DNA of 64,000 bases from Escherichia coli (GTDB taxonomy: Bacteria > Pseudomonadota > Gammaproteobacteria > Enterobacterales > Enterobacteriaceae), in the NCBI RefSeq assembly GCF_003334315.1, contig NZ_QOWR01000011.1; one strand, written 5' to 3'. The notes under the pieces were generated by a model. That model worked only from the letters and a program-made list of their open reading frames with translations, had not been told where the DNA came from and did no database searches. How positions within the stretch are numbered: position 1 is the stretch's first letter; each line of letters begins with the position of its first letter. A program made the position numbers and the translations under genes. Positions 412 through 51,597 of the stretch are shown here, one piece after another.

Positions 412-1104
412 ATGCCTTTAAGCGCACAACAGTTAGCTGCACAGAAAAACCTTTCGTATGTTCTGGCTGAGAAGCTGGCGCAACGCATCTTAAAAGGTGA
501 ATATGAACCCGGCACCATTTTGCCTGGTGAGATTGAGCTGGGCGAGCAATTTGGAGTGAGTCGTACAGCGGTACGCGAAGCGGTCAAAACGTTAACGGCA
601 AAAGGGATGGTTTTACCGCGACCGCGAATTGGTACCCGGGTCATGCCACAATCAAACTGGAATTTTCTTGATCAGGAATTGCTTACCTGGTGGATGACAG
701 AAGAGAACTTTCATCAGGTCATCGATCACTTTCTGGTTATGCGTATCTGTCTGGAGCCGCAAGCTTGCCTACTGGCTGCAACGGTTGGCACCGCGGAACA
801 GAAGGCGCATCTCAATACGTTAATGGCCGAAATGGCGGCATTAAAAGAGAACTTTCGCCGTGAACGCTGGATCGAAGTCGATATGGCCTGGCATGAGCAT
901 ATCTATGAAATGAGCGCCAATCCGTTTTTGACCTCATTCGCCTCGCTATTCCATTCGGTTTATCACACTTACTTCACGTCAATTACCAGCGACACAGTGA
1001 TAAAGCTGGATCTGCACCAGGCGATTGTCGATGCGATTGTCCAAAGCGATGGCGACGCGGCATTTAAAGCTTGTCAGGCGCTGCTACGCTCACCTGATAA
1101 GTGA
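412..1104 (+). CDS. yieP: GntR/FadR-family transcriptional regulator YieP
   Basis: 230-aa ORF with N-terminal winged-HTH signature (GEQFGVSRTAVREAVKTL); length and position next to rrnC and hsrA match K-12. Confidence 0.9.
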   Translation: MPLSAQQLAAQKNLSYVLAEKLAQRILKGEYEPGTILPGEIELGEQFGVSRTAVREAVKTLTAKGMVLPRPRIGTRVMPQSNWNFLDQELLTWWMTEENFHQVIDHFLVMRICLEPQACLLAATVGTAEQKAHLNTLMAEMAALKENFRRERWIEVDMAWHEHIYEMSANPFLTSFASLFHSVYHTYFTSITSDTVIKLDLHQAIVDAIVQSDGDAAFKACQALLRSPDK

Positions 1105-1126
1105 CAACCCGATAACAGGACATTGA

Positions 1127-2554
1127 ATGAGCGATAAAAAGAAGCGCAGTATGGCGGGTTTGCCGTGGATCGCGGCGATGGCCTTCTTCATGCAGGCACT
1201 TGATGCCACTATTCTGAATACCGCCTTACCCGCAATCGCTCATAGCCTTAATCGTTCTCCTCTCGCGATGCAATCAGCCATCATCAGTTATACGCTGACG
1301 GTGGCGATGCTTATTCCGGTAAGCGGATGGCTAGCCGATCGCTTCGGTACGCGTCGCATTTTTACCCTTGCCGTGAGTCTGTTCACATTGGGTTCTCTGG
1401 CCTGCGCACTTTCTAATTCGCTACCACAGCTGGTTGTCTTCCGGGTTATTCAGGGGATAGGCGGCGCAATGATGATGCCTGTTGCTCGGCTGGCCTTACT
1501 GCGCGCTTATCCTCGTAATGAACTTCTTCCAGTATTGAATTTTGTCGCCATGCCGGGTCTGGTGGGGCCAATTTTAGGCCCCGTTCTTGGCGGCGTGCTG
1601 GTCACCTGGGCAACCTGGCACTGGATATTTTTAATCAATATCCCCATAGGTATTGCGGGCCTTCTTTACGCGCGCAAACATATGCCCAATTTCACCACCG
1701 CACGACGCAGATTCGATATCACTGGCTTTTTGCTGTTTGGCCTCAGCCTTGTTCTCTTCTCAAGCGGAATAGAGCTATTCGGGGAAAAGATTGTCGCCAG
1801 CTGGATTGCCTTGACGGTAATTGTCACCAGCATCGGGTTACTGCTTCTCTATATTCTCCATGCGCGACACACGCCAAACCCATTAATTTCATTAGATTTA
1901 TTTAAAACCCGCACTTTCTCAATCGGTATCGTAGGCAATATTGCAACCCGTCTGGGGACCGGTTGTGTACCGTTCCTTATGCCATTGATGTTACAGGTAG
2001 GATTTGGTTATCAGGCGTTTATTGCCGGCTGTATGATGGCACCGACAGCGTTAGGTTCCATTATTGCAAAATCGATGGTTACCCAAGTCTTACGTCGTCT
2101 GGGCTATCGCCATACGTTAGTGGGGATCACGGTGATTATTGGGCTAATGATCGCTCAGTTCTCTTTGCAATCACCGGCAATGGCGATATGGATGCTGATC
2201 TTGCCGTTGTTTATATTAGGGATGGCTATGTCGACGCAATTTACCGCGATGAATACCATCACACTTGCCGATCTGACCGATGACAACGCCAGCAGCGGTA
2301 ACAGTGTTCTGGCGGTCACGCAGCAACTGTCGATTAGTTTAGGCGTTGCTGTAAGTGCGGCCGTCCTTCGCGTTTATGAAGGGATGGAAGGCACAACGAC
2401 TGTCGAACAATTCCACTATACGTTTATCACGATGGGCATTATTACTGTTGCTTCAGCAGCAATGTTCATGCTTCTGAAAACAACCGATGGTAATAATTTG
2501 ATCAAAAGACAGCGTAAATCTAAGCCGAACCGCGTTCCATCAGAATCGGAGTAA
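1127..2554 (+). CDS. hsrA: MFS transporter HsrA (YieO), putative drug efflux
   Basis: 475-aa hydrophobic multi-TM ORF with MFS motifs; 3' end overlaps rbsR convergently. Confidence 0.88.
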
Positions 2555-3512
2555 GTTGTAATCGTTGTTGCTGAAGGGTCGGCTGGGTTATCCGATGGAT
2601 GAGTACATCAATCGCCAGCTCCCCCAGTTCATCTTTCGGTTGGTGGATAGTGGTTAATGGTGGCGTCATAAAGCTTGCCAGTTCGATATCGTCATAGCCA
2701 ATCACCGCGATATCCTGCGGAACCTGTAACTCTGCCTGATATAACGCCTGGTAAACGCCAACAGCCATAGCGTCATTTCCGGTAAAGACGGCCTGAGGAC
2801 GCAGCGGATGTGATAACAGTTGGCGCATGGCGTCAAACCCGCCGTTAAATTCAAAATCACCAGTGACTTCATAGCCATCAGGAATGTTGAGACCCGCACG
2901 TTTCATCGCCGCCCGATAACCTTCCAACCGCAGGCGCGCCGGAGTTTTATCCAGCGGACCGGTAATACAGGCGATACGGGTATGACCTTTATCGATCAGA
3001 TATTGCGTTGCTAAGTCTCCGCCCAGCAACGAGTTATCCTGAATAAGATCGCTGTCGCCATCGAACGGAGCCCAGTCCATCATCACAGTAGGCACTGTCG
3101 GATAACGTTGCATGATTTCACGCGAAGGTTGATGCGTTTCGGTGCACAGTAACAGCAAACCATCAACGCGTTTTTGCATCAGCGTTTCCAGATTGCGATT
3201 CATCCGCTGTTCATCGCCTTCGGTATTGCAAAGGACGAGACTATAACCGCGTTCGAAGCAGCTGCGTTCAACGCCACGCACCAGTTCTGAATAGAAAGGA
3301 TTGGTACTGGCAGTGATCAACATGCCAATGGTATGTGTTTGATTGAGTTTGAGGCTACGCGCCAGGGCTGATGGCGCGTAATTGAGTTCTTTAATCGCCG
3401 CTTCAACTTTGGCGGTAATCGCTTCACTGACGAAGCGATCTTTATTGATAACGTGAGAAACTGTTGAGGTAGAAACGCCCGCCAGGCGGGCAACATCTTT
3501 CATTGTAGCCAA
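2520..3512 (-). CDS. rbsR: Ribose operon repressor RbsR (LacI/GalR family)
   Basis: 330-aa ORF starting [24 protein letters not shown] (LacI-type HTH); last gene of rbs operon. Confidence 0.95.
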
Positions 3513-3515
3513 GCG

Positions 3516-4445
3516 TCACCTCTGCCTGTCTAAAAATGCGTCGATCTCTTCACGCCACGGTACGGAAGGTTGTGCGCCTTTACGTGTTACGGCAATCGCA
3601 GCGGCAGCATGGGCAAACCGAATCGCCTCTGGCAATGGTTTTTCTTCCAGCAACGCCGTGATTAACGCGCCGTTAAAGGTATCTCCGGCAGCAATGGTAT
3701 CGACAGCCTGCACCCGGAATCCAGGAACGCGCTGACCTTCACCATTCACGCTAGCCCATACACCACGACTTCCTAAAGTAATCAGTACAGTACGGATACC
3801 TTTTTCATGCAGTACCTGCGCCGCCTTCGCTGCATCTTCATCATTTTCAACACGAATACCGGTGAGCTTTTCTGCTTCCGTTTCGTTTGGCGTAATAATG
3901 TCCACCAGCGCCAGCAGTTCGTCAGGAAGTTCGCGAGCCGGAGCCGGGTTAAGCGCAACGATAGTCTTATTTTGATGGGCGATTTTCGCCGCTGCCATCA
4001 CACTTTCGAGTGGTGATTCCAGCTGCATTAATAATGCTGACGCGTTGGCAATACGCTCACGTTGCGCTTCCACCAGCGCCGGGGAAAGGGCAGCATTAGC
4101 GCCGGCATGAATACCGATGACATTCTCACCTTCGCCATTAACAAAAATCAGCGCCACACCTGTTGATTCGCCTTTGATCACGCTGACCGGAGTAATATCA
4201 ATGTTATCAGTGGCGAGCTGCTGGCGAACGCTCTCACCAATGCTGTCATCACCCGTACAGGCAATAAACGCGATATTCGCACCGCTACGCCCAGCAGCCA
4301 CAGCCTGATTCGCGCCTTTGCCGCCAAATGCAACCTGATAGTGGTTACCGGTTACGGTTTCGCCTGGAGTAGGAAAAGATTGAAGATTAAGAATGTGGTC
4401 AGCATTAATGCTGCCAAGAACAACGAGGCTGCCTGCGTTTTGCAT
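3516..4445 (-). CDS. rbsK: Ribokinase
   Basis: ORF matches RbsK; start trimmed to MQNAGSLVVLGSINADHIL giving 309 aa. Confidence 0.93.
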   Translation of the reverse strand: MQNAGSLVVLGSINADHILNLQSFPTPGETVTGNHYQVAFGGKGANQAVAAGRSGANIAFIACTGDDSIGESVRQQLATDNIDITPVSVIKGESTGVALIFVNGEGENVIGIHAGANAALSPALVEAQRERIANASALLMQLESPLESVMAAAKIAHQNKTIVALNPAPARELPDELLALVDIITPNETEAEKLTGIRVENDEDAAKAAQVLHEKGIRTVLITLGSRGVWASVNGEGQRVPGFRVQAVDTIAAGDTFNGALITALLEEKPLPEAIRFAHAAAAIAVTRKGAQPSVPWREEIDAFLDRQR

Positions 4446-4570
4446 ATTCGGGATGTCCATAAAATGCGCCACCGTGTTAGGGTGGCGCGTGCCCTGCTTT
4501 TCTTTATATTACACGTTCATCTGTCGATGACGTATTTATGTCACCATCAGGTCATACAACCTGATTAAAA

Positions 4571-5461
4571 CTACTGCTTAACAACCAGTTTCAGATCAAC
4601 CGGATACTTAGCCTGAACTTTCTCGCCTTTCAGCACTTTATCTGCGGTTTCGACGCCTTTCGCGCCAATCTGATCGGGTAGCTGAGCGATAGTCGCTGCT
4701 AGTTTGCCATCATTCACCGCTTTTTCGCCATCCGGTGTACCGTCAAATCCGACGACCATCACATCCGATTTACCGGCAGTTTGCAGTGCGCGCAGCGCGC
4801 CCAGCGCCATTTCATCATTCTGCGCGAATACAGCCTGAACATCCGGATGAGCGGTCAACAGGTTCTGCATTACGTTCAAACCTTTAGTGCGATCAAAATC
4901 TGCTGGCTGGCTGGCAAGAACATTAAACTTGTGAGCAGCAACGGCCTGCTGGAAGCCTTCGCCACGTTCACGGGCTGCGGATGTACCAGCAATGCCTTGC
5001 AGCTCGATAACTTTGGCACCTTCACCCGCTTTCTTCGCGATGTAATCACCAGCGATTTTGCCGCCCAGTACGTTATCAGAAGCAATGTGGCTCACCACTT
5101 CACCTTTCGTTGCCTGGCGGTCAAGAGTGATAACCGGGATGTTCGCCTGGTTAGCCATCTTCACAGCATTACCCACTGCGTCGGAGTCGGTCGGGTTAAT
5201 CAGCAGAATTTTTGTGCCGCGAACGGTTAAGTCCTGCACGTTCGCCAGCTCTTTCGCCGGGTTGTTCTGGGAGTCCAGCACCACCAGGTTATAGCCAAGT
5301 TTATCCGCCTCTTTCTGCGCGCCATCTTTCAGCGATACAAAGAACGGGTTGTTAAGCGTGGAGACCACCAGCGCGATGGTGTCTTTTGCCATCGCATTCG
5401 CACTGACGGTGGCGCTTAGCGCAACAGCGGAAACCAGGGTAGCCAGTTTTTTCATGTTCAT
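4571..5461 (-). CDS. rbsB: Ribose ABC transporter periplasmic binding protein
   Basis: Signal peptide [25 protein letters not shown] then periplasmic binding fold; 296 aa. Confidence 0.95.
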
Positions 5462-5485
5462 ATTCAAGATGTCCTGTAGTCGTTA

Positions 5486-6451
5486 TTACTGCTTTTTGTT
5501 GTCTACCAGCACCGCCAGCAAAATCACCACCGCTTTGACGATCATCTGGTAATAGGAGGAAACACCTAACAAATTCAATCCATTATTAAGGAAGCCAAGA
5601 ATTAATGCGCCGATCAACGTCCCAACAATGCGACCTTTTCCGCCCGCCAGACTCGTACCGCCCAGAACCACCGCAGCAATAGCATCCAGCTCATAGCCAG
5701 TCCCCGCCGTGGGTTGTGCGGAGGAGAGACGCGCCACTTCAATGATCCCGGCCAGCGATGCCAGCAGACCACAAAGAGAATAGACGATGATTTTGATTTT
5801 ATTGACGTTGATACCAGAAAGACGCGTTGCCGCTTCGTTGCCGCCCAGCGCGTAGATGTAACGCCCCAGACGCGTGTGATGCAGCATGTACCAGGCCGCG
5901 AGGAAGACAATCCCCATGATCCAGACTGGCGTCGGTACGCCCAGCGGACGACCAATACCAAACCAGCCAAACAGATCGGCGTTCTCAGTAAAGCCGGTAT
6001 TCACTGGGCTACCGTTGGTATAAACCATGGTCACGCCGCGCAGTAAAAGCATCATAACCAGCGTAGCGATAAACGCCTGGACGCGACCTTTCGCTACAAT
6101 CACCCCGGTTACCGCACCGATTGCGGCACCTAACGCGAGAGCAGCAGCGACAGCCACCAGCGCATTGACTTCAATGCCGACGATAGATGCAGCAACTGCG
6201 CCGGTCAGCGCCAACAGAGAACCTACCGATAAGTCGATGCCCGACGTCAGGATCACCAGCGTCATCCCGACCGCCATAATGGCGTTCACTGAGGTTTGCT
6301 GGAGAATATTGAATAAGTTATTGATGGTGAAAAAGTTCGGGCTTAACGTCGAGACAATCGCGATCAGCACCAGCAGAGCGATAAGCGATTTCTGCTCCAT
6401 CAGCCACGCTTTCGTGAAATAACGGCGACCAGAGACAGTCTGGGTTGTCAT
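5486..6451 (-). CDS. rbsC: Ribose ABC transporter permease
   Basis: 321-aa hydrophobic permease ORF in rbs operon order. Confidence 0.95.
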   Translation of the reverse strand: MTTQTVSGRRYFTKAWLMEQKSLIALLVLIAIVSTLSPNFFTINNLFNILQQTSVNAIMAVGMTLVILTSGIDLSVGSLLALTGAVAASIVGIEVNALVAVAAALALGAAIGAVTGVIVAKGRVQAFIATLVMMLLLRGVTMVYTNGSPVNTGFTENADLFGWFGIGRPLGVPTPVWIMGIVFLAAWYMLHHTRLGRYIYALGGNEAATRLSGINVNKIKIIVYSLCGLLASLAGIIEVARLSSAQPTAGTGYELDAIAAVVLGGTSLAGGKGRIVGTLIGALILGFLNNGLNLLGVSSYYQMIVKAVVILLAVLVDNKKQ

Positions 6452-28070: not shown

Positions 28071-29900
28071 ATGTGTGGAATTGTTGGCGCGATCGCGCAA
28101 CGTGATGTAGCAGAAATCCTTCTTGAAGGTTTACGTCGTCTGGAATACCGCGGATATGACTCTGCCGGTCTGGCCGTTGTTGATGCAGAAGGTCATATGA
28201 CCCGCCTGCGTCGCCTCGGTAAAGTCCAGATGCTGGCACAGGCAGCGGAAGAACATCCTCTGCATGGCGGCACTGGTATTGCTCACACTCGCTGGGCGAC
28301 CCACGGTGAACCTTCAGAAGTGAATGCGCATCCGCATGTTTCTGAACACATTGTGGTGGTGCATAACGGCATCATCGAAAACCATGAACCGCTGCGTGAA
28401 GAGCTAAAAGCGCGTGGCTATACCTTCGTTTCTGAAACCGACACCGAAGTGATTGCCCATCTGGTGAACTGGGAGCTGAAACAAGGCGGGACTCTGCGTG
28501 AGGCCGTTCTGCGTGCTATCCCGCAGCTGCGTGGTGCGTACGGTACAGTGATCATGGACTCCCGTCACCCGGATACCCTGCTGGCGGCACGTTCTGGTAG
28601 TCCGCTGGTGATTGGCCTGGGGATGGGCGAAAACTTTATCGCTTCTGACCAGCTGGCGCTGTTGCCGGTGACCCGTCGCTTTATCTTCCTTGAAGAGGGC
28701 GATATTGCGGAAATCACTCGCCGTTCGGTAAACATCTTCGATAAAACTGGCGCGGAAGTAAAACGTCAGGATATCGAATCCAATCTGCAATATGACGCGG
28801 GCGATAAAGGCATTTACCGTCACTACATGCAGAAAGAGATCTACGAACAGCCGAACGCGATCAAAAACACCCTTACCGGACGCATCAGCCACGGTCAGGT
28901 TGATTTAAGCGAGCTGGGACCGAACGCCGACGAACTGCTGTCGAAGGTTGAGCATATTCAGATCCTCGCCTGTGGTACTTCTTATAACTCCGGTATGGTT
29001 TCCCGCTACTGGTTTGAATCGCTAGCAGGTATTCCGTGCGACGTCGAAATCGCCTCTGAATTCCGCTATCGCAAATCTGCCGTGCGTCGTAACAGCCTGA
29101 TGATCACCTTGTCACAGTCTGGCGAAACCGCGGATACCCTGGCTGGCCTGCGTCTGTCGAAAGAGCTGGGTTACCTTGGTTCACTGGCAATCTGTAACGT
29201 TCCGGGTTCTTCTCTGGTGCGCGAATCCGATCTGGCGCTAATGACCAACGCGGGTACAGAAATCGGCGTGGCATCCACTAAAGCATTCACCACTCAGTTA
29301 ACTGTGCTGTTGATGCTGGTGGCGAAGCTGTCTCGCCTGAAAGGTCTGGATGCCTCCATTGAACATGACATCGTGCATGGTCTGCAGGCGCTGCCGAGCC
29401 GTATTGAGCAGATGCTGTCTCAGGACAAACGCATTGAAGCGCTGGCAGAAGATTTCTCTGACAAACATCACGCGCTGTTCCTGGGCCGTGGCGATCAGTA
29501 CCCAATCGCGCTGGAAGGCGCATTGAAGTTGAAAGAGATCTCTTACATTCACGCTGAAGCCTACGCTGCTGGCGAACTGAAACACGGTCCGCTGGCGCTA
29601 ATTGATGCCGATATGCCGGTTATTGTTGTTGCACCGAACAACGAATTGCTGGAAAAACTGAAATCCAACATTGAAGAAGTTCGCGCGCGTGGCGGTCAGT
29701 TGTATGTCTTCGCCGATCAGGATGCGGGTTTTGTAAGTAGCGATAACATGCACATCATCGAGATGCCGCATGTGGAAGAGGTGATTGCACCGATCTTCTA
29801 CACCGTTCCGCTGCAGCTGCTGGCTTACCATGTCGCGCTGATCAAAGGCACCGACGTTGACCAGCCGCGTAACCTGGCAAAATCGGTTACGGTTGAGTAA
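28071..29900 (+). CDS. glmS: Glutamine--fructose-6-phosphate aminotransferase
   Basis: 609-aa [36 protein letters not shown] (N-terminal nucleophile Cys2). Confidence 0.98.
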
Positions 29901-29907
29901 TAAATGG

Positions 29908-29936
29908 ATGCCCTGCGTAAGCGGGGCATTTTTCTT
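29908..29936 (+). terminator. glmS rho-independent terminator; overlaps the canonical Tn7 attachment site (attTn7), unoccupied
   Basis: Hairpin ATGCCC-TGCGTAAGC-GGGCAT plus T-run directly after glmS stop; 313-bp glmS-pstS spacer contains no insertion. Confidence 0.8.
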
Positions 29937-30107
29937 CCTGTTATGTTTTTAATCAAACATCCTGCCAACTCCATGTGACAAACCGTCATCTTCGGCTACT
30001 TTTTCTCTGTCACAGAATGAAAATTTTTCTGTCATCTCTTCGTTATTAATGTTTGTAATTGACTGAATATCAACGCTTATTTAAATCAGACTGAAGACTT
30101 TATCTCT

Positions 30108-30150
30108 CTGTCATAAAACTGTCATATTCCTTACATATAACTGTCACCTG
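30108..30150 (+). promoter_or_regulatory. Tandem Pho boxes (PhoB binding sites) of pstS promoter
   Basis: Direct repeats CTGTCATAAAACTGTCATATTCC and TTACATATAACTGTCACCTG match the Pho-box consensus. Confidence 0.85.
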
Positions 30151-30195
30151 TTTGTCCTATTTTGCTTCTCGTAGCCAACAAACAATGCTTTATGA

Positions 30196-31254
<1,059 letters not shown>

Positions 31255-33190: not shown

Positions 33191-33209
33191 TATTGCTGAC
33201 ACGGTTTTC

Positions 33210-33250
33210 CCCTCACCCTAACCCTCTCCCCAGAGGGGCGAGGGGACCGA
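33210..33250. repeat. GC-rich imperfect palindromic intergenic element (CCCCTCACCCTAACCCTCTCCCCAGAGGGGCGAGGGGAC)
   Basis: Read directly; resembles a recurrent E. coli intergenic repeat class but I cannot name the family with confidence. Confidence 0.4.
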
Positions 33251-33284
33251 CCGAGCGCCTTTTTGACTCTGTACACGGTTAACA

Positions 33285-33330
33285 CTTTGCCGGATGCGGC
33301 GTGAACGCCTGATCCGGCCTACGGTAAGCC
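33285..33330. repeat. REP element in pstA-pstB spacer
   Basis: GCCGGATGCGGCGTGAACGCCTGATCCGGCCTAC matches REP palindromic-unit consensus. Confidence 0.8.
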
Positions 33331-33333
33331 TGA

Positions 33334-34146
<813 letters not shown>

Positions 34147-50259: not shown

Positions 50260-51507
50260 TTAGCCAAATTTAGGTAACACGTTAAAGACGTTGCCGAACC
50301 AGCACAAAATCACGGTTATACCAAAGAGAATGACAATCGCCGGAATAAGATTGCCGCCCCAGACCGTGAACATCTGATTGGGAAACTTCTTGCGAGCTTT
50401 GATTGCAAGCACTGCGGGAATAATGACCGCCCAGATGGTGGCGCACAGCCCGGCACCGCCGATCCCGTAAATAAAGCCGTTCGGGAAGATCAGATACAAC
50501 AACGCAGGTGGCAGGAAGGTTAACAGCACGGTTTTGAAACGCCCGCCGTGGGAGTTATCAATCTTAAACAGGTCCGCCAGATAATCGAACAACCCCAGCG
50601 TGACACCAAAGAACGAACTGGCAACAGCTAAGTTAGAGAACACCAGCAGGCAAAACTCGATAATGCCGTGCTGTTTGGTGCCGAGGAACGATTTCACCAG
50701 CGAATCAACGTTGCCGCCTGAGGAGATAATCGCCTTAAAGCTTTCTCGCGGAATATTCCCCATGGTGCAATAGAGCCAGAAGAGATAAATCACCAGCGCC
50801 AGCAGCGAACCAAATACTACGCTTTTGATTAACTTATCTTTGCGTTTTCCATAGCAAATAATCAGGCTGGGAATATTGCCGTGGAAACCAAATGACGCCA
50901 GACACACCGGCAAAGCCATAAAGATATACGGGAAGTAAGACGTTCCCGCAGTGGAGCTGGTGGCGTCGCGCAGAATGGAGTAATCGACCTGGAAGAAAAA
51001 AGAACCAAACACGATCACAAAGGAGATAATCTTCAGCCCGAGGAACAATGAGGTAATACGACTGGCGGCTAACGAACTTAACCACAATACGCTGGCAACG
51101 AAAATGGCTGTGCAGATCCCGACAATACGTGGATTAGCGTGATAACCCAAATTCATTGATATCGTTTCACTAATGATCGCACCATTAGCAGAGATATAGG
51201 CATAAGTGAGGATATAGAGAACGAAGGCAACGGTAATACCGCTGATAATGTTCCAGGTGTTACCGATTAAATCTTTGGTGATGGTGTTAAAACTGGAGCC
51301 GACGGGATAATTTAAATTTGCTTCTAATAACAATAACCCGGAATGAAGCATTGAAAACCAGGCAATGATAAGGATAAAGGCACCCCAGAAAAACCAGGCA
51401 CCGGCAAGATCAACAGGTAAAGCAAACATACCTCCACCAATTACTGTACCTGCTATAACCATAACACCCCAAAATGCAGAGTGCTTTTTTTCAGCTTGAT
51501 CAGTCAT
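50260..51507 (-). CDS. tnaB: Low-affinity tryptophan permease TnaB
   Basis: 415-aa ORF MTDQAEKKHSAFWGVMVIAGTVIGGGMFALP, aromatic amino acid permease family. Confidence 0.96.
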   Translation of the reverse strand: MTDQAEKKHSAFWGVMVIAGTVIGGGMFALPVDLAGAWFFWGAFILIIAWFSMLHSGLLLLEANLNYPVGSSFNTITKDLIGNTWNIISGITVAFVLYILTYAYISANGAIISETISMNLGYHANPRIVGICTAIFVASVLWLSSLAASRITSLFLGLKIISFVIVFGSFFFQVDYSILRDATSSTAGTSYFPYIFMALPVCLASFGFHGNIPSLIICYGKRKDKLIKSVVFGSLLALVIYLFWLYCTMGNIPRESFKAIISSGGNVDSLVKSFLGTKQHGIIEFCLLVFSNLAVASSFFGVTLGLFDYLADLFKIDNSHGGRFKTVLLTFLPPALLYLIFPNGFIYGIGGAGLCATIWAVIIPAVLAIKARKKFPNQMFTVWGGNLIPAIVILFGITVILCWFGNVFNVLPKFG

Positions 51508-51597
51508 GATGCCACCTTTAGAGGAAGGCTATTTTTGTTATTGAGGATGTAGGGTAAGAGAGTGGCTAACATCCTTATAGCCACTCTGTAGTATTAA

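Follow-up and report, generated by a model that had tools for sequence, protein, structure and literature searches.

A K-12-type, unoccupied attTn7 downstream of glmS in an Escherichia coli chromosome

Introduction

Does the short spacer between glmS and pstS in this E. coli chromosome contain a vacant attachment site for Tn7, and if so, what does the vacancy tell us about the strain? The site, attTn7, is one that we take to have been experimentally defined in E. coli K-12; Gay and colleagues in 1986 and Kuduvalli and colleagues in 2001 are reportedly the sources for the K-12 attTn7, a TnsD-dependent site downstream of glmS. A sequence-only reading of a 64,000-nucleotide stretch of DNA (hereafter the window) had proposed that such a site lies, unoccupied, at the glmS terminator. 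We compared the window with K-12, with a genome in which Tn7 is resident, and with the complete genomes available for the species.

Results and Discussion

The genes and the terminator at the glmS-pstS spacer

The window is a segment of E. coli chromosome and aligns over its whole length to K-12 AB1157, with 99.96% identity over 11 kb and 99.35% over the 51 kb surrounding the site, the latter value pointing to a strain distinct from AB1157. Genes are arranged in the order yieP-rbs-kup-ravA-asnA-mioC-oriC-mnmG-atp-glmUS-pstSCAB-phoU-bgl-tna-mnmE-yidC-rpmH-dnaA-dnaN-recF-gyrB. Three features lie in the spacer or on either side of it:

28071-29900, + strand: glmS (glutamine--fructose-6-phosphate transaminase), 609 aa, with a TAA stop codon at 29898-29900; open reading frame and NCBIfam equivalog TIGR01135 (898 bits; cut-off, 418)
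29908-29936, + strand: intrinsic terminator of glmS, with stem ATGCCCTGC / GCGGGGCAT (29908-29916 / 29921-29929), loop GTAA and then TTTTCTT; terminator scan and inverted-repeat search
30214-31254, + strand: pstS (phosphate-binding protein), the first gene of pstSCAB-phoU; open reading frame and NCBIfam NF008171 (747 bits; cut-off, 339)

Both gene identities proposed earlier are borne out, each protein scoring well above its NCBIfam cut-off, and the spacer measures 313 bp (29901-30213), as had been claimed. Immediately after the glmS stop codon, the predicted terminator combines a stem of 9 bp, counted as 11 pairs by the terminator scan, with a T-run, and its RNA has a predicted folding energy of -19.1 kcal/mol (z = -4.1 relative to shuffled sequences).

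The 3' end of glmS and the spacer match attTn7

We located the site by mapping from an occupied copy. A 171-bp query spanning the terminator gave a match in APEC E19019 (NZ_CP126937.1, locus L004) that was split at query base 81, and in that genome tnsA, tnsB, tnsC, tnsD and tnsE, together with the class 2 integron intI2-dfrA1-sat2-aadA1, lie between glmS and pstS. The inserted Tn7 is 14,067 bp long (L004 5935-20001), is bounded by TGTGG...CCACA, and has GCGGG on both flanks; with a slash marking the boundary, its junctions read ...GCGTAAGCGGG/TGTGGACGGACAATAAAG... and ...TTTTGTCCGCCCACA/GCGGGGCATTTTT... Removal of Tn7 and one GCGGG from the APEC E19019 sequence yields the junction found in the window, the right flank resuming at 29926. 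In the same element (L004 5930-5942), the right-end terminus reads TGTGGACGG and the left end TGTGGGCGG.

The mapping defines two further features in the window:

29865-29900, + strand: TnsD recognition sequence of attTn7 (published +58 to +23), CCGCGTAACCTGGCAAAATCGGTTACGGTTGAGTAA, consisting of the last 11 glmS codons and the stop codon
29921-29925, no strand assigned: Tn7 insertion point, the 5 bp GCGGG (attTn7 +2 to -2) that are duplicated on insertion, centred on 29923 and present once

The first of these follows from the second. Position 0 of attTn7 is the middle of the duplication, and the minimal TnsD-binding site extends from +23 to +58 towards glmS (Mitra et al. 2010, PMC2918618), a region described in the Figure 1 legend of that paper as one of 11 residues. 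With 0 set at 29923, the published footprint runs from 29900 down to 29865 and hence ends exactly on the stop codon. An independent check came from the four bases that the same paper names: reading the complementary strand, we found +31 C, +42 T, +43 T and +51 T each where the numbering predicts. The insertion centre falls 23 bp beyond the final base of the glmS stop codon, within the terminator hairpin and on its 3' arm, and this geometry agrees with the 23-bp offset, and with GCGGG as the duplication of canonical Tn7, described by Peters et al. (2017, doi 10.1101/154229).

Comparison with K-12 gave the same picture. The 349 bp that begin with the TnsD site and run up to the pstS start codon match K-12 AB1157 exactly. 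Thus, the two are identical across the 36-bp TnsD site, GCGGG, the glmS terminator and the 313-bp spacer in its entirety, the insertion centre is 23 bp after the stop codon in both, and we found no difference at the site itself. Judged by this identity to the K-12 reference site, the site in the window should be competent for Tn7.

These coordinates refine the original proposal in two respects. The range proposed earlier, 29880-29960, does cover the insertion point and the terminator; however, it begins 15 bp late and takes in only 21 of the 36 recognition bases. Similarly, the earlier description of the glmS 3' end and terminator together as the attachment site is right for the last 36 bp of glmS, which are the part recognised, but the terminator is the landing place: the TnsD site alone specifies the target, and the sequence at the insertion point is not required (PMC2918618).

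The site holds no Tn7 DNA

We searched the window for any trace of the element. The Tn7 terminal sequence TGTGGGCGGACAA had no match in the 64 kb at up to 2 mismatches in a pattern search, and BLAST of the full 14,067-bp Tn7 against the 64 kb returned chance-level matches only. A very permissive BLAST of the 64 kb with the Tn7R and Tn7L ends (150 and 170 bp) likewise returned only chance matches of at most 13 nt. By tblastn, TnsA-E had no match in the whole window at E <= 1, and pstS comes 313 bp after glmS. Neither TGTGG nor CCACA occurs in 29850-30213, and the GCGGG at 29921-29925 is the sole copy in 29880-30213. The sequence-only reading had itself named the finding that would overturn it, namely Tn7 repeats or a 5-bp duplication within 29900-30213; that test was run and was negative, and the comparison of the spacer with a reference strain that it had also suggested gave identity to K-12 AB1157. 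Hence, none of the marks of a resident Tn7 or Tn7-like transposon is present in the window, whether 8-bp TGT.../...ACA termini with their arrays of 22-bp TnsB-binding repeats, tnsA, tnsB, tnsC and tnsD/tniQ beside glmS, or a duplicated pentamer.

Since these element searches rely on similarity to canonical Tn7, a highly divergent element could escape them; the spacer, however, leaves no space for such an element, all 313 bp being accounted for and identical to K-12. A repeat search of 29850-30230 recovered only the terminator stem, the Pho-box repeats described below and short chance pairs. One of these pairs, GCGTAACCTGG / GCGTAAGCGGG (29867 / 29915, 82%), might have been a duplication, but with only two short copies we attribute it to chance.

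With a site identical to that of K-12, a single GCGGG, no Tn7 DNA, and an occupied genome that places Tn7 at the same position, the central claim of the earlier reading stands: we consider it nearly certain that 29865-29925 is a wild-type, unoccupied E. coli attTn7. APEC E19019 and ~100 other complete genomes with attTn7::Tn7 have the flanking genes, the spacer allele and the target pentamer in common with the window. They differ from it in carrying the 14,067-bp Tn7 (tnsABCDE, dfrA1-sat2-aadA1) between two copies of GCGGG, whereas the window has a single GCGGG and is without the element; in addition, the left flank of APEC E19019, which is otherwise the same as that of the window, differs at one wobble base in the TnsD site (+35 T>A).

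An empty attTn7 is the normal state in E. coli

We determined how often the site is occupied in 5,426 complete E. coli genomes, a sample biased to clinical and laboratory isolates, such that the percentages given here and below are descriptive only. A 1.1-kb query comprising the glmS end, the K-12-type spacer and the pstS start was found uninterrupted in 3,007 of the 5,426 genomes, and the K-12-type segment 29926-30107 was present at all in 3,066. The junction of glmS with Tn7R was detected in 102 of the 5,426 (1.9%), and Tn7L was joined to K-12-type spacer in 55. The K-12-type spacer is interrupted in 59 genomes, and ~98% of genomes with this allele are empty at attTn7. We considered whether the interruptions represent elements other than Tn7; 55 of the 59 are explained by the canonical Tn7L junction, and another, in VE-F5 (NZ_AP027953.1, locus L008 ~5500-6110), is Tn7 combined with a deletion in the spacer. 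In VE-F5, Tn7 is at the site and the spacer resumes at the equivalent of 30000 rather than 29926, with ~74 bp beside Tn7L apparently missing.

We conclude that an empty attTn7 is the normal and unremarkable state, seen in ~98% of the complete E. coli genomes in this sample. The suggestion that the emptiness is worth recording is therefore one that we do not share, since the default state, with a Tn7R junction in only 102 of 5,426 genomes, carries little information. The accompanying description of the locus as a standard place for cargo or defence islands fits Tn7-like elements in general, but the sole cargo seen in the E. coli set was the class 2 integron of Tn7.

The remark that the site also serves Tn7-like CRISPR-associated transposons was similarly too broad. 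Type I-F CRISPR-associated transposons use IMPDH, yciA or SRP-RNA sites (Peters et al. 2017, doi 10.1101/154229), whereas a type I-B subgroup is reported downstream of glmS (doi 10.1101/154229; PMC13251919), and for that subgroup the remark is correct. As described in the literature, the glmS-homing type I-B transposons (e.g. that of Anabaena variabilis) resemble the system considered here in having a TnsD-clade protein and a glmS-downstream site (doi 10.1101/154229; PMC13251919). They differ in that none was present in the window or in the sampled E. coli loci, where interruptions were almost all canonical Tn7.

The main variation in the spacer is an lpf operon

About 2,400 genomes split the 1.1-kb query, and we considered these as candidates for Tn7-like islands. 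Inspection showed instead that the insert is the lpf (long polar fimbriae) operon, a chaperone-usher operon of lpfABCD(-like) genes. Junction alignment defined the segment that differs:

29902-30107, no strand assigned: K-12-type spacer allele, 206 bp including the terminator, replaced by the 5.4-kb lpfO113/lpf2 operon in ~43% of E. coli

Using an island query, we detected the lpf island (lpfO113/lpf2, O-island 154) in 2,350 of the 5,426 genomes. Together with the 3,066 genomes of K-12 type, this accounts for 5,416 of the 5,426, and the spacer is thus biallelic. The lpf allele diverges 1-2 nt past the glmS stop codon and rejoins the K-12-type sequence just ahead of the first Pho box. Annotated O113-type lpfA-D genes are present in FORC_041, GPEC1209 and N4220121 (in locus L001 the island spans 582-5990), and O157:H7 has a divergent lpf2 in the same glmS-pstS slot; versions of the O113 type are 82-100% identical, and the O157 lpf2 is barely alignable. 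These observations agree with published descriptions of an lpf locus between glmS and pstS, there designated O-island 154 (PMC6033998), and of its absence from MG1655 (PMC2608844).

The lpf locus thus occupies the same intergenic slot as the K-12-type segment, with the glmS end and the Pho boxes conserved on either side. It differs in that it replaces 29902-30107 and has no Tn7 ends at the sampled junctions, and it is absent from the window, which has the 313-bp K-12-type spacer instead. The lpf allele has its own, different terminator-like hairpin next to glmS. In GPEC1209, Tn7 has inserted into an lpf-type allele (locus L002 590-600), and the flank on the Tn7L side is GGGCT, corresponding to bases 21-25 after the stop codon and hence to the same 23-bp distance. 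The occurrence of GGGCT in one allele and GCGGG in the other at equal distance agrees with the TnsD site alone specifying the target.

We conclude that the main variation between glmS and pstS in E. coli is the presence or absence of lpf, which is unrelated to Tn7, and that the lack of lpf is a more informative statement about the window strain than its Tn7 vacancy. At the level of the population, canonical Tn7 is found at ~2% of sites in the sample, and the spacer varies chiefly by lpf and not by Tn7-borne cargo or defence islands.

Pho boxes and the remainder of the spacer

A Pho box is the PhoB-binding site upstream of a Pho-regulon gene and replaces the -35 element. We searched the window for the 18-bp consensus CTGTCATA(A/T)A(T/A)CTGTCA(C/T) and obtained the following feature:

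30108-30147, + strand: two tandem Pho boxes in the pstS promoter, CTGTCATAAAACTGTCAT at 30108-30125 (0 mismatches) and CTTACATATAACTGTCAC at 30130-30147 (2 mismatches)

These two are the only matches in the 64 kb, against 0.23 expected by chance, and are predicted PhoB sites. They form a direct repeat (D2) with 22-bp spacing and are conserved in both the K-12-type and the lpf spacer alleles. A promoter scan of the + strand returned nothing meaningful; no call is expected there, because a PhoB-dependent promoter lacks a -35 element.

The earlier statement that the spacer holds only the terminator and Pho boxes is correct as to both of these features, which are real, but leaves out ~175 bp of AT-rich sequence between them. 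Within that sequence are two additional Pho-box-like heptamers, CTGTCAC at 30008-30014 and CTGTCAT at 30029-30035, which are 21 bp apart and lie 75-100 bp upstream of the canonical boxes. Both fall in the K-12-allele-specific segment that is missing from lpf strains.

Alternative explanations

The reading of 29865-29925 as a wild-type, unoccupied attTn7 has to be weighed against other accounts of why the spacer is short and what it contains. A Tn7 or Tn7-like element might once have been present and been excised, the sequence we see being a repaired scar. Tn7 does circulate at this site in E. coli, as the 102 genomes with a Tn7R junction demonstrate; however, the window has no duplicated pentamer, end remnant or indel, 349 bp are exact to K-12, and 3,007 genomes share the arrangement. 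Although perfect repair would be traceless, and so would be indistinguishable from a site that was never occupied, we regard past excision as extremely improbable. An account that we also think unlikely, while giving it serious consideration, is that the short spacer is secondary: an ancestor would have carried the lpf operon, which was later lost or replaced, so that the emptiness would mark a lost island and not a site unused throughout. The biallelic distribution of the spacer (3,066 K-12-type and 2,350 lpf genomes among 5,426), with shared boundaries, is consistent with this, and the presence of divergent lpf versions in one slot suggests long residence. Against it, the alignment reveals no evident similarity between the 206-bp K-12-type segment and the lpf allele; the difference is therefore a replacement and not a simple deletion, and the direction of the replacement is not readable from E. 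coli alone. Whichever allele came first, attTn7 is empty, and this account concerns the history of the spacer and not the attTn7 call.

The spacer could instead conceal an element of another kind, for instance a small protein, an sRNA derived from the glmS 3'UTR or an additional PhoB-regulated site. The ~175 bp at 29932-30107 have no assigned role, and the heptamers at 30008 and 30029 lie within them. On the other hand, we found no open reading frame of at least 60 aa within 29901-30143 and no Rfam family in the spacer at gathering thresholds in a search of the whole window; a search of 29800-30300 at E <= 1 gave best values of 0.11-0.68, all to irrelevant families, and the RefSeq annotation of K-12 has nothing in the segment 29932-30107. 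A hidden element is, in our judgement, improbable. Furthermore, the segment is dispensable, because ~43% of the E. coli sampled are without the whole of it. We hold it very doubtful that the 206-bp K-12-type segment at 29902-30107 has a regulatory function, for instance as an upstream PhoB/IHF-binding region built on the heptamers at 30008 and 30029 or by giving rise to RNA derived from the glmS 3' end; if it had, the two alleles would wire the expression of pstS or glmS differently. We therefore retain the reading of an unoccupied, wild-type attTn7 in a K-12-type spacer.

Expected behaviour of the site

The feature is already known: it is the textbook attTn7 in its commonest, empty state. At present, the DNA serves only its host: it encodes the last 11 residues of GlmS, its 29908-29929 hairpin would end transcription of glmS, and the predicted PhoB-dependent promoter of pstS lies further downstream. 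From the Tn7 literature, TnsD would be expected to bind the 36 bp at 29865-29900 and to recruit TnsC, and the TnsAB transposase would then join the ends of the element at staggered positions around 29923. An inserted Tn7 would have a copy of GCGGG (29921-29925) on each side, and its right end, the one nearest tnsA, would face glmS; insertion would split the terminator stem and leave the glmS reading frame intact. With the exact coordinates of the TnsD site (29865-29900) and the insertion point (29921-29925) in hand, the strain should accept mini-Tn7 at a predictable, neutral position.

Other features of the window

The origin of replication, oriC, lies at 15750-16000 in the mioC-mnmG interval, where one 250-bp bin contains 11 GATC sites (mean, 1.3). 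DnaA boxes are found at 15750, 15824 and 15930, and cumulative GC skew is lowest at ~14-18 kb. The position of oriC places attTn7 ~14 kb away from it, and glmS runs in the same direction as replication.

Two RNAs gave full-length Rfam matches, both on the - strand: the enterobacterial sRNA STnc410 at 26298-26455 (188 bits), which is in the atpC-glmU spacer and antisense to the direction of atp and glmU, and AsdA, the antisense RNA of dnaA mRNA, at 58524-58604 (102 bits). Within the pst operon, the pstA-pstB spacer (33191-33372) is 182 bp long and contains REP-like (GCCGGATGCGGCGTGAACGCCTGATCCGGCCTAC) and boxC-like (CCCTCTCCCCAGAGGGGCGAGGGGA) repeats; the corresponding spacer is 90 bp in FORC_041. 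In the tnaA region, ~2 kb of the window (51029-53002) are without a counterpart in K-12 AB1157, which has IS1 and a truncated tnaB there; the arrangement in the window is intact.
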